DNA of 64,000 bases from Eledone cirrhosa (taxonomy: Eukaryota): assembly GCA_964016885.1 (NCBI GenBank), contig OZ024750.1:16182001-16246000 (forward strand). Direction: 5' to 3'. The position numbers were made by a program, and so were the translations under genes. Positions within the stretch are counted from its first letter, which is position 1. Each line of letters starts with the position of its first letter. Under the pieces are notes generated by a model. The model searched no databases. It worked only from the letters and a program-made list of their open reading frames with translations, and was not told where the DNA came from. This document shows positions 1,408-63,513 of the stretch, in pieces.

Positions 1408-1582
1408 CATAACATACATACATACATACATACATACATACATACATACATACATACATACATACATACATACATACATACATATATATGTTAAGTATTT
1501 CAGTGGAAAAATAAAGGAAAGAAGAGTGCTCTATGTGTGGTACAGAGCTATTTAATTCTGTAATAAACAACACAATATAATT

Positions 1583-1647
1583 ATTTCATTACCCAAGATT
1601 TCACGGATTCTAACAGAGGCGTCTGAATCCGTTCATCAGATAGAAAT
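1583..1647 (-). ncRNA. Type I hammerhead ribozyme
   Basis: Minus strand reads AUUUCUAU CUGAUGA ACGGAUUC(14 nt)GAAUCCGU GAAA UCUUGG GUA AUGAAAU: perfect 8-bp stem II, bulged 7-bp stem I, GUA cleavage site. Confidence 0.85.
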
Positions 1648-1747
1648 CTTTAAGATGCTTATTACATTATATATATATATATATATATATATATATATAT
1701 ATATATATATATATATATATATATATATATATATATATATATATATA

Positions 1748-2146
1748 TTGGTAAAAGGAAAAGAAAATGCTGACAAATTGTTCCCAGTGAAAAATAGTTT
1801 AATTAGGAATAAGTAAAAATTAGTAATAGTATTAGTTAGTATTCAGTTTTGGTTTTAAGTTTTACCGGTTGCGCATTTCTAATGCTTTTCAAAAATAATT
1901 TTGAGATAGAGCGCCCGTGATATTTGCTCTAATCTGATTAGTTTTGGAAATTCTACCTGTTTTATGTAAAAAAAAGTGGCCCCAGATGTATGAAAAAATT
2001 CTACCAAAACTGAATACTAACCAATACTATTACTAATTTTTACTTATTCCTAATTAAACTATTTTTCACTGGGAACAATTTGTCAGCATTTTCTTTTCCT
2101 TTTACCAATATATCATAACTCGTGTGTTACACCTCTATTCTTTTAA
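1748..2146. mobile_element. Penelope-like inverted pLTR remnant (arms 1748-1853 / 2003-2108, plus tail) in (TA)n
   Basis: Near-perfect ~106-bp inverted repeat. A decayed hammerhead lies on the minus strand at ~1862-1895 (UUGAAAA GCAUU-AGA-AAUGC GCAAC CG GUA). Confidence 0.7.
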
Positions 2147-2338
2147 ATATATATATATATATATATATATATATATATATATATATATATATATATATAT
2201 ATATATACATATATATATATAATAAAAACATGTGGAACATATAAAGAGCAGAGAAAATATTTGGAATTTGCTGTCTTAACGGCAAGAACTCAGTCGTCAG
2301 GCCATGTCACTCTACTATATATATATATATATATATAT

Positions 2339-3150
2339 TCATTAGTTAAGCAAAACAAGACCACAAATTTCACAAGGAAGACATTATTAAAAGATTGTCA
2401 ACATATTTTAGTTTGATGTAAGGAATGTAGAGAATAATAATAATAATATTAATAATAATAATGCCCGTTTACAATTGTTTCGCTACTCCATATAATATTT
2501 CTGGATCAAATGACTATATATCATTATTGATCTGGTTCAGTTGAAAATAATTAACATATTTAAAAACAGAGCGGCTCATCGGAACTTCAAAGGAATATAA
2601 ATTAAGATAAGGAGAGAATGTTACATAATGTAATGTTCCATATATTGGTATTTCACTATGACCCATAGACAGATCTCACACAATGCAGCCTCGACAGATG
2701 AATACTGCTTGATTATGGCTGACAATTGATACACCCAGGACACCATAGTGAAATACCAATATATGGAACATTACATTATGTAACATTCTCTCCTTATCTT
2801 AATTTATATTCCTCTGAAGTTCCGATGAGCCGCTCTGTTTTTAAATATGTTAATTATTTTCAACTGAACCAGATCAATAATGATATATAGTCATTTGATC
2901 CAGAAATATATGGAGTAGCGAAACAATTGTAAACGGACATTATTATTATTAATATTATTATTATTATTCTCTACATTCCTTACATCAAACTAAAATATGT
3001 TGACAATCTTTTAATAATGTCTTCCTTGCGAAATTTGTGGTCTTGTTTTGCTTAACTAATGAATAAACCCAGGCACCTAGCTGCTTTCTACTGCATATTG
3101 CACATTGAGCACATGCCTTTACGCTTTGGCTTCTAACTAATTCACCAATC
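2339..3150. mobile_element. Penelope-like inverted pLTR remnant (arms ~2339-2660 / 2744-3064, plus tail)
   Basis: ~320-bp near-perfect inverted repeat beginning at a (TA)n edge, with a hammerhead-like motif in each arm. Confidence 0.75.
2819..2934 (+). ncRNA. Hammerhead variant (CCGAUGA core, ~77-nt stem II insert); mirror copy at ~2467-2586 (-)
   Basis: GUU CCGAUGA GCCGCUC ... GAGUAGC GAAA CAAUUG UA AAC, with palindromic stem III ACAAUUGU. Stem I is only 3 bp. Confidence 0.6.
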
Positions 3151-3419
3151 TCTCCTCTCCTATCTCCTCTCCTATCTCCATCTCTCTCTTTAAGATTGGT
3201 TACTCTTGAACTGTGTATATATATATATATATATATATATATATATATATATATGTGTGTGTGTGTGTGTGTGTGTGTGTGTGTGTGTGTGTGTGTGTGT
3301 GTGTGTGTGTGTGTGTGTGTGTGTGTGTGTGTGTGTGTGTGCGTGTGCGTGTGTGTGTGTGCGTGTGTGTATATGTATACTCACCTGCACAAATATATAT
3401 ATAGTATATATATATGTAT

Positions 3420-60800: not shown

Positions 60801-60874
60801 AAATACTAATTGAAATGTTGCTCTTCTTAAAACACATTTCATTAAAATGTTATGCAAAAGGTAGAATACAGCGA

Positions 60875-61592
60875 ACTACTACTACTACTACTACTACTAC
60901 TACTACTACTACTACTACTACTACTACTAGTACTACTACTACTACTAGTAGTAGTAGTAATATTACTACTACCACTACTACTACTACTACTACTACTACT
61001 ACTACTACTACTACTACTACTAGTAATATTACTACTACCAACACCACCACCACTACTACTACTACTACTACTACTACTACTACTACTACTACTACTACTA
61101 CTAGTAATATTACTACTACTACCACCACCACCACCACCACCACCACCACCACCACCACCACCACCACCACCACCACCACCACCACCACCACCACCACCAC
61201 CACCACTACTACTACCACCACTACTACTACTACTACTACTACTACTACTACTACTACTACTAGTAGTAATATTACTACTACCACCACCACCACTACTACT
61301 ACTACTACTACTACTACTACTACTACTACTACTACTACTACTACTACTACTACTACTACTACTACTACTACTACTTCTACTACTACTACTAGTAGTAGTA
61401 ATATTACTACCACCACCACCACCACCACCACCACCACTACTACTACTACTACTAGTAGTAGTAATATTACTACCACTACCACCACTACTACTACTACTAC
61501 TACTACTACTACTACTACTACTACTACTACTACTACTACTACTACTACTACTACTACTAGTACTACTACTACTACTACTGCTGCTGCTGCTG
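60875..61592 (+). repeat. (ACT/ACC)n with recurring AGTAATATTACT interruptions
   Basis: Visible. Confidence 0.95.
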
Positions 61593-62079
61593 CAATCAAT
61601 AATGATAATAATAACGATAATAACAGTTGTAATGGTAAGTGTGGTGGTGGAATCGGGGGAAAATGTCCTTGTTGATTGAAGACGCTGGAACGTTGTGTGT
61701 ATATACACAAATGTACACGTATACATACAATCACACACACAGACACACACTCACGCACACACTCACACACACACTCACACACACACACACGCACATATAT
61801 AAATATATACATACTCCCAACCCCCACTATATATATATATATATATATTTATACATGTGTTTATATATTTTATATATATATATATATATATATATATATA
61901 TATATATACCTGTATATATGTACATGTGATATGATATATACATTTATACATACATTTATTGCTGTGTGTACCTGTCTAATACGTCCGTGTATATACGTTT
62001 GTTTTAATCTCACCAGACGATAGATCGGCTGACATGTTAACATTGTAAACAACCAAGTGAACACACGACCCCCCCCCCC

Positions 62080-62600
62080 CCACGCACACACACAACTACA
62101 CACGCAGGCACACTCACACACACACTCACACACACATACTGAAACACAGATATGCATGTATTTATATATATATATGTATGTGTGTGGGTGTAGGTGTGTA
62201 CTTTTACATACATATACACCCCAATTCTTATACACACTTATACACGCACACACATTGCAAGACATGCATGCTCACACACACACACACACACACACACACA
62301 CACACACACACACACACACACACACACACACACACACACATGTGCGCGCACACAACTACACACGCAGGCACACACACACACACACACTCACACACACATA
62401 CTGAAACACAGATATGCATGTATTTATATATATATATGTATGTGTGGGTGTAGGTGTGTACTTTTACATACATATACATGCCAATTCTTATACACACTTA
62501 TACACGCACACACATTGCAAGACATGCATGCTCACACACACACACACACACACACACACACACACACACACACACACACACACACACACACACACACGGA
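62080..62600 (+). repeat. ~265-bp tandem duplication in CA-rich sequence
   Basis: The block cacaactacacacgcaggca...gacatgcatgctcaca occurs twice. Confidence 0.85.
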
Positions 62601-63090
62601 TACACACACACACATACTCACATACACTCACACGCATACACATATACTTAACTCCATCTTTGAAGAAGAAAGATGTATCTTATATATACGCACGTTTATA
62701 TAAACAGATGTACACACACATATACGAAGACATGCACTGGGCATAATTATATACACACGTACAGTACATATAACAGAATCACAGAAAATGTCCACATATC
62801 CACATATCCACATATCCACATATAAATGCAGCGCCAACACAGAATATACACAATATCTGAATGTATTTTGTTACGTATTGTATATACGAACGTACATTAT
62901 ACACAGCGAAATTATACACACATATCAACATATACAAATAAACTCAGTTTATACAACATAACCACATAGAAAATACTTACATATGCAGTATATACAAACA
63001 AACGCAGTTAACTGTGCATGGATATATAAATATATATATATATATATATGTGTGTGTGTGTGTATATATATATATATATATATATATATA

Positions 63091-63513
63091 TATAAATAAT
63101 ATAAAATCAAAAGATGGTTAAAAGAGTTCCATGTATTTTATTATGAGCATTTCAAAAACAAATATCATCATGGGATGATATTTGCGTTCTCATCAGATAA
63201 AATAGGGAGGCATGATATGAAGCTTAAAAAACACTTGCGAGCAGTGAAGTGTTAAATCAACATTGAAGTAAATCAACACTGCTCGCAAGTGTTTTTTAAG
63301 CTTCATATAATGTCTCCCTATTTTATCTGATGAGAACGCAAATATCATCCCATGATGATATTAGTTTTTGAAATGCGCATAATAAAATACATGGAACTCT
63401 TTTAACCATCTTTTGATTTTATATTATTTATACTCCAGTCCTATAAACTGTTGAGTGCTACTTATCCGATATTTGCATTGCTTTATTGTGCTACAATAAA
63501 ACTCACCTCCTAC
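63091..63513 (+). mobile_element. Inverted pLTR (arms 63091-63246 / 63277-63432) plus 81-bp tail; hammerheads at 63321-63387 (+) and 63136-63202 (-)
   Basis: UUUUAU CUGAUGA GAAC...UUUU GAAA UGCGCA UA AUAAAA; same family as 29885-30105. Confidence 0.88.

Follow-up and report, generated by a model that had tools for sequence, protein, structure and literature searches.

A conserved bulged hairpin at the inversion boundary of short Penelope-like insertions in Eledone cirrhosa

A 64,000-nt stretch of the Eledone cirrhosa genome (GenBank assembly GCA_964016885.1, contig OZ024750.1, positions 16,182,001–16,246,000 of the forward strand; hereafter “the window”) holds short insertions in (TA)n tracts that, judged from their sequence, are likely 3′ pieces of Hydra-clade Penelope-like retroelements. 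Many are head-to-head inverted copies, and their inverted arm stops beside a small bulged hairpin. This hairpin is real, is not due to chance, and adds a conserved cis-structure to a class of elements that is otherwise familiar: inversion, one-sided tail, hammerhead ribozyme and stem-loop initiation are already known, while the new part is a conserved bulged hairpin tied to S1, one of the two places at which the elements end (S1, 0–9 nt before the hairpin, and S2, the tail end). Literature searches found no description of it, though it may be mentioned in notes to Repbase entries, in subscription papers or in supplements.

The original prediction, made from the letters of this DNA, had listed seven hairpins of the form RCTC…GAGYRCT, and all seven are present with the coordinates and strands it gave, including the compensated GCTC/GAGC version at 1525–1548 (−). 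In the window, which is AT-rich and ~36% simple repeats (22,809 bases masked), ACTC-N10-22-GAGTRCT has 9 matches against 0.38 expected (0/100 shuffles reach 9) and GCTC-N10-24-GAGCRCT has 2 against 0.12 expected (0/100 shuffles), giving 11 strict sites where ~0.5 would arise by chance. The list was incomplete: strict sites at 6865, 11436 and 30972 (+) and at 34579 (−) were absent from it, as were relaxed sites with inverted arms at 24917–24945, 51430–51478 and 24487–24535 (all −), and the spacer that it put at 12–18 nt ranges from 11 to 18 nt (11 at 24765). Masked self-BLAST, used for repeats (unmasked repeat finders were swamped by microsatellites), sorts the strict sites into seven families with no other similarity among them: A (1525), C (6647, 6865, 11436 and 30972), D (23330), E/G (24765 and 29143), L (34579), J (57554) and K (63432). 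The description of the elements as otherwise unrelated holds between these seven families and fails for 24765 and 29143, which belong together (88.6% over 105 nt); the 11436 site is a segmental duplicate of 6865 and not an independent event.

The prediction had the motif ends right and overlooked what lies between them. The full order is RCTC, an upper stem of 3–5 bp, a loop, the partner strand, a 3′ bulge of 1–2 nt starting with T, GAGY and RCT, for a total length of 22–30 nt. Upper stem and bulge occur in 11/11 strict sites, although selection used the end motifs alone, and the upper-stem letters vary between sites yet remain paired. Pairs were counted on end-anchored sequences, since MAFFT misaligned the 5′ halves of nine hairpins. 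Across ten such sequences (two of which had been selected because they possess the stem, and with E and G related), the basal stem opens with A-T in six and with G-C in four, and its other three pairs are invariant. The upper three positions pair in 30/30 cells, with all four Watson–Crick types represented; permuting the 3′ letters yields a mean of 16.3 paired cells, and 0/20000 permutations reach 30. Shuffled interiors place the joint chance near 1e-14 across the seven families. A structural descriptor, written after the data had been seen, adds sites 24917 and 51430 to the strict set and, with the RCT end, matches unmasked sequence 11 times, where shuffled sequence gives 0.05 on average and 2 at most. 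When folded with flanks, 10/12 motif-bearing sequences form the basal stem.

Arm ends were located from the same self-BLAST, which gave 21 fold-back candidates, one of them dropped as a redundant cross-pair (6528–6856) and 20 kept. Thirteen of the 20 have (TA)n on one side and a unique tail on the other, i.e., the 5′-truncated head-to-head inverted copy with a one-sided tail that is typical of endonuclease-bearing (EN+) Penelope-like elements, and in 10 of these 13 the distance from the outermost paired base to the start of the hairpin is −1 to +7 nt. The ten represent six families and nine independent insertions. The C family has an offset of +5 three times: at 6647–6673 (+; tail 45 nt), behind the palindrome 6525–6641 of an insertion spanning 6528–6718 (“insertion C”); at 6865–6891 (+), behind the palindrome 6742–6859; and in the segmental duplicate of the latter (11436–11462, +; palindrome 11313–11430). 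The offset is again +5 for hairpins E (24765–24786, +; palindrome 24677–24759) and G (29143–29165, +; palindrome 28760–29137), +6 for F (24917–24945, −, measured from 24945; GCTC/GAGC followed by TAT; palindrome 24952–25148) and +7 for J (57554–57576, −, measured from 57576; 1-nt bulge; palindrome 57584–57763). Two long-loop hairpins of the Q family lie at +2 (24487–24535, −, measured from 24535; GCTC/GAGC with an interrupted upper stem; palindrome 24538–24661) and +7 (51430–51478, −, measured from 51478; palindrome 51486–51612), a shift of the arm end by 5 nt between copies which implies that S1 is a short interval rather than a point. Lastly, the K hairpin (63432–63459, +; tail 52 nt) has an offset of −1, the arm of its palindrome (63091–63432) ending on the first hairpin base. 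For the five inverted copies in which the arm had been said to end 0–7 nt before ACTC, the distances are 5, 5, 5 and 7 nt, and −1 at 63432, where the arm includes the A, which upholds the stated range.

The motif is absent from the 70-nt flanks of the other seven fold-backs (four of a family resembling short interspersed nuclear elements, “SINE-like,” and three others), and uniformly distributed arm ends would produce the observed clustering with a chance of ~1e-9 for seven elements, over an interval picked post hoc. At eleven arm ends the mean overlap with the (TA)n target is 3.2 nt against 1.2 expected (P 3e-5); such overlap, 1–4 nt, blurs each arm junction. Both arms of insertion C carry the same copy-specific variants, so that arms are likely remade at each insertion. 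Insertion C is missing from the segmental duplicate, where plain (TA)n at 11265–11315 marks the empty site; the duplication itself is recent, in tandem and ~4.6–4.7 kb long (about 3700–8400 and 8400–13000), with 99–100% identity outside microsatellites.

The Penelope-like reading of these elements stands: hammerheads lie upstream, targets are (TA)n, the inversions are head-to-head with one-sided tails, and the hairpin occurs in published Hydra-clade consensi. A hammerhead descriptor has 11 matches in the window, among them A, G, K and their kin at 29997 and 55631. Minimal type I hammerheads in the terminal repeat are found in A (1585–1644, −), G (29032–29091, +, with a mirror copy at 28806–28865, −) and K (63322–63386, +, with a mirror copy at 63137–63201, −), where the cut falls 41, 56 and 50 nt before the hairpin, respectively. 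J and Q have the hammerhead core only, 72 nt upstream of the hairpin (CTGAGGA in J); the C family has, by eye, an apparent hammerhead 3′ half with about 25 nt from cut to hairpin; none was seen in the window for D or L, and the C, E and F copies are truncated. The order is thus hammerhead, 41–56 nt, hairpin and a tail of 33–77 nt running to a microsatellite.

Comparison with the available supplement of Craig et al. (2021; PMC8557442) points to the Hydra clade, whose (TA)n insertion and canonical type I hammerhead near the 3′ end (File S2) are shared by the window elements, as is an equally placed hairpin; the window copies are short and non-coding, and the comparison covers features other than protein hallmarks. 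Canonical hammerheads also separate them from Naiad, a clade defined as lacking one (PMC8557442). Four 9-mers searched against the supplement matched in two consensi of the Hydra clade and at one Chlamys coding position that is unrelated. By eye, a bulged hairpin 38–48 nt after the cut is present in 4/6 of the File S7 Hydra consensi, a count that covers these six and leaves 21 Repbase families outside it, and that uses the hairpin as a clade trait proposed here rather than a published one. It lies 43 nt after the hammerhead cut in Hydra-2_Amil (coral) and 38 nt in Hydra-2_Ajap (sea cucumber), both with 2-nt 3′ bulges, and 47 nt in Hydra-1_Crog (sea louse), with a 2-nt 3′ bulge and one basal-stem mismatch; the 5′ end of Hydra-1_Crog further has a GCCC/GGGC double-change variant 6 nt in. 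Hydra-1_Ajap runs to 46 nt past the cut and opens 2 nt ahead of a perfect hairpin, so that its published unit boundary is S1, and Hydra-1_Amil, which is 5′-incomplete, ends 47 nt after the cut. The words “hairpin” and “palindrom” have 0 occurrences in the main text of PMC8557442, and the available passages leave the hairpin unmentioned. Taken together, the hairpin families very probably belong to the Hydra clade or are moved by it.

These data bear on two explanations in which the hairpin has no part in setting the boundary. Coincidence, or descent of a few copies from one ancestor, might be suspected where a pattern is drawn post hoc and several sites are of one family, yet the strict motif occurs in seven otherwise dissimilar families with covarying stems and the same motif recurs in three other phyla; enrichment, the interior-shuffle test and the Hydra consensi of other phyla refute this explanation, to which we assign next to no weight. 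A Helitron-type 3′ hairpin was considered and dropped as well, since hammerheads, inversions and the Hydra match account for the sites. Alternatively, the hairpin may be conserved because it serves transcription, ribozyme control or the start of translation in the following unit, with S1 set by an AT-rich stretch or by distance from the hammerhead. In tandem units it does sit at the 5′ end, before the reading frame (as in the available Hydra-1_Ajap consensus), arm ends fall on TA matches, and hammerhead spacing is fairly constant too. The hairpin is nevertheless the tighter landmark, as the distance from arm end to hairpin has a range of about 9 nt compared with 41–56 nt from cut to hairpin, and it is intact in short non-coding families; we consider this alternative unlikely.

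The copies fall into four classes by their ends, with both S1 and S2 recurring in independent copies. Class (i), palindrome plus tail, has ten cases. Class (ii) comprises three insertions in three families that skip the hairpin. The K-family case (29884–30092) joins an inverted tail, stopping 0–3 nt from the 3′ edge of the hairpin, to a direct copy (hammerhead 29997–30061) that runs to the 5′ foot; the C-family case (29726–29811) joins an inverted arm from the usual arm end to the last ~28–34 nt of the tail; and an E/G-like case (55590–55796), which is diverged and has a less certain junction, joins ~43 nt of inverted tail end to a direct copy (hammerhead 55631–55689, −) ending before the hairpin position. 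Class (iii) copies have S2 only: A (tail 35 nt) and D (23330–23358, +; tail 73 nt), neither with an inverted arm; L (34579–34607, −; GCTC/GAGC, no inverted arm, tail 77 nt); I, of the C family (30972–30998, +), which has no long inverted arm; and a C-family piece at 29619–29703 (+) that starts exactly at S1 and runs to the tail end, its hairpin damaged by a 5-nt duplication. Class (iv) copies have S1 only and lack the tail: a Q-family copy ending at the arm-end position (6440–6506, +), its duplicate (11198–11264) and an E/G-family copy ending near the arm-end position (34340–34446, −). No S1+S1 or S2+S2 insertion occurs in the window among the four families compared. A further hammerhead element (22760–23254, −, and 26352–26525; hammerhead 22811–22865, −) ends ~55 nt past the cut with no tail, and is likely an S1-only copy; the tail of its family does not occur in the window. 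Different families also stack in one (TA)n tract, up to three consecutively (6507–6745, 24452–24847, 1490–2146 and 29619–30092).

One way to make such copies is from a single complementary DNA (cDNA) that starts at the tail end, folds back and primes itself, with second-strand copying blocked at the hairpin. Self-priming was proposed earlier for Penelope-like palindromes (PMC3846280, in the part of that text available), most palindromes here have spacers of 0–12 nt between their arms, and the centre of the G palindrome has a local inverted repeat. Short spacers are, however, also expected if both cDNAs reach a fixed 5′ end, as in C and K, weak hairpins make poor barriers, and folding back offers no route to tail-only inversions joined to non-overlapping S1-ended copies or to S1 copies without tails, all of which renders this origin improbable. 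Because class (ii) is not derivable from one cDNA folding back and would fit two primers flanking a protein-covered hairpin, the hairpin-skipping insertions favour two reverse-transcription starts on RNA, where the original prediction had left reverse transcriptase, endonuclease and priming open.

We favour, with somewhat better than even confidence, a hairpin that serves in the element RNA as a docking site for the element protein and thereby places one reverse-transcription start just 5′ of itself. Conservation of the structure, its geometry and two reused ends are what we observe, and from these we infer action in RNA rather than DNA, docking by a protein and a causal role at the boundary. 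Under this scheme the endonuclease would cut both strands of the (TA)n target, one target end would prime at S2 and the other at S1, where a short TA match of 2–4 nt would select the exact base, and the two cDNAs would be joined head to head. An S2 strand crossing the hairpin would recopy the region of the S1 strand, leaving a palindrome with an unduplicated tail, whereas one halting early would leave an insertion with the hairpin skipped. The L1 retrotransposon joins two primed cDNAs as an inversion in a comparable way (twin priming), but its inversions are not known to duplicate the arm or to depend on a fixed signal; the template-boundary stem of telomerase is likewise an RNA stem bound by a reverse transcriptase that limits copying, but it marks the end of copying and not the start. 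Fixed 5′ ends in the C and K families, which recur across independent copies (C at 6528–6856, 29726–29783 and 30905–31038; K at 63091–63260 and 29935–30092) and are distinct from the hammerhead cut, fall outside this scheme; they suggest that C and K are non-autonomous and short, with units of roughly 135 nt (C) and 250 nt (K).

The closest experimental parallel is Poseidon of Anolis carolinensis (Frangieh et al., 2024; PMC11167929, available in part), whose protein, a dimer by prediction, cleaves AT-rich DNA on both strands in vitro, whose tail is bounded by two internal RNA starts in an AC-rich stem-loop, and for which hammerhead cleavage is not required. Like Poseidon, the window elements have two reverse-transcription starts (as read here) bounding a tail, a stem-loop downstream of the hammerhead and an AT-rich target apparently cut on both strands. 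By analogy, the Poseidon scheme may apply here with a different, clade-conserved hairpin: the reported Poseidon stem-loop lacks RCTC/GAGY, the AC-rich trait of that one element (Poseidon_Ac) is not found here, and tails extend 33–77 nt past the hairpin compared with 30–40 nt in total for Poseidon. The hairpin might instead act in DNA, with the GIY-YIG endonuclease recognising it in the cDNA or an integration intermediate, cutting just 5′ of it and so trimming one arm. Craig et al. attribute the tail to endonuclease resolution (PMC8557442), the D. virilis endonuclease needed tail sequence for plasmid cutting (as cited in PMC11167929), and mostly Watson–Crick pairs mean that either DNA strand could fold. 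Yet hairpin-skipping insertions end at S1 without any hairpin DNA, a G-U pair in the Q family fits the sense strand only, and Poseidon tail ends were mapped directly to reverse-transcription starts (PMC11167929); the chances of this explanation appear small.

Several observations weigh against an RNA docking site as the cause of the boundary in a Hydra-clade element. Position by itself cannot establish cause, and the step from neighbour to cause is ours. At −2 to −8 kcal/mol the hairpins are weak, and with flanks two C-family sequences favour another weak fold, while in A and F the pairing register changes and the bulge disappears. Three of the 13 tailed fold-backs depart from the pattern: 1743/2113 has ACTC and the upper stem at +4 and no GAGY, the hairpin of 2336/3065 is degenerate and lies at +17, and the arm of a family at 44 kb terminates within a different stem. 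The reported Poseidon start lies inside the stem-loop and has no target homology, unlike the arm end 5′ of the hairpin foot and the short TA matches seen here (PMC11167929). In the available Hydra set, Hydra-1_Obim has 36 nt from the cut to its end and a 5′ GCTC without partner; conversely, GCTC-N18-GAGCACT without a convincing upper stem lies close to the 5′ end of Naiad_Ptep, a match found among 28 of 54 GAGYRCT-type 7-mer matches in the Naiad and Chlamys files, where about one would be expected by chance. Finally, a six-frame motif scan of the window turned up no Hydra-type coding remnant, linked to a hairpin family or otherwise.

With no linked coding remnant in the window, clade and enzyme can only be inferred, and Hydra membership rests on hammerhead, target and hairpin rather than on protein. 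The protein criteria are RWK and DKT motifs, a CxCX5C linker, an endonuclease without CCHH, and reverse transcriptase phylogeny; within the window no remnant of an open reading frame (ORF) with a telomerase-related reverse transcriptase and GIY-YIG endonuclease is linked to the hairpin families. Pfam, applied to 12 of 260 unmasked frames, gave above cut-off only zf-RVT (PF13966, E 4e-07), in a 311-aa frame at 37631–38563 (+) that is likely an L1/Tx1-type ORF2 end. An Rfam scan of the window yielded nothing useful, the best 150 of 406 matches being sub-threshold, of microRNA type and on microsatellites and palindromes.

Other hammerhead-bearing elements resemble the hairpin families in part. 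The canonical Penelope pseudo-long terminal repeat (Adineta Pen2a, PMC3846280, with D. virilis as cited there) is likewise a 5′-truncated head-to-head copy with an optional one-sided tail, and the available account describes no common tail structure of the kind found here. Non-LTR (long terminal repeat) retrozymes are also short, non-coding, hammerhead-bearing and thought to be moved by Penelope-like proteins, and a hairpin signal was not found described in the available parts of those reports (PMC7229834; bioRxiv 10.64898/2026.07.22.740005). They form head-to-tail arrays, each repeat with a complete hammerhead, whereas the hairpin families are dispersed inverted insertions. The sole such tandem in the window, a 479-nt unit at 43.5–44.5 kb, has no strict motif; this retrozyme-like locus (43518–44674) has a hammerhead per copy, an inner (TA)n and an inverted arm, and a relative lies at 56248–56597.

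Work on how Penelope inverted ends and their one-sided tail arise has had one in vitro system and a rough map of the RNA determinant to build on; the invariant bases, the bulge and the natural compensatory changes of the hairpin offer exact mutations, in a clade whose reverse transcriptase is related to telomerase. The hairpin is also a practical marker by which many short non-coding palindromes of microsatellite-rich animal genomes can be assigned to the Hydra clade, and it is a candidate signal for directing cargo into (TA)n. More tentatively, and with doubts exceeding our confidence, it may be a portable cross-phylum RNA anchor, used by the retroelements most closely related to telomerase, on which a protein dimer primes two cDNAs, one either side, with C (~135 nt) and K (~250 nt) as minimal parasites written into (TA)n. 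If true, a dimer on the hairpin would account for both the inversion and the tail of Penelope by a single step, and C and K would need little beyond the signal.

The window holds further mobile-element remains. A 3′ fragment of another Penelope-like element at 45202–46000 (+) encodes a GIY-YIG-like C-terminus, interrupted by one stop. A core resembling a hammerhead follows near 45760, and ~55 nt beyond it comes a two-part stem-loop of another kind (45850–45880, −14.5 kcal/mol), so that its layout is that of the hairpin elements while its stem-loop sequence differs; its GIY-YIG-like portion (45202–45495) has no Pfam match above cut-off and no homologue among 21 candidates. Another hammerhead family (52196–52574, hammerhead 52328–52369, −) lacks the motif, and its relative at 24–192 is cut by the left edge of the window. 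C-terminal endonuclease-like fragments lie within (TACA)n arrays at 5378–5803, 10112–10537, 4401–4697 and 9186–9482 (−); they have no Pfam match and resemble the restriction-like endonuclease of an R2-superfamily non-LTR element. The SINE-like family, ~190 nt long, is abundant and often in tandem or inverted pairs (21810–22313, 25729–26292, 27003–27576, 40227–41060 and ~20 more), and ARAGORN called no tRNA in the window, this family included. A degenerate TTAGGG/TTAGTG-rich array at 53207–53879 resembles interstitial telomeric repeats.

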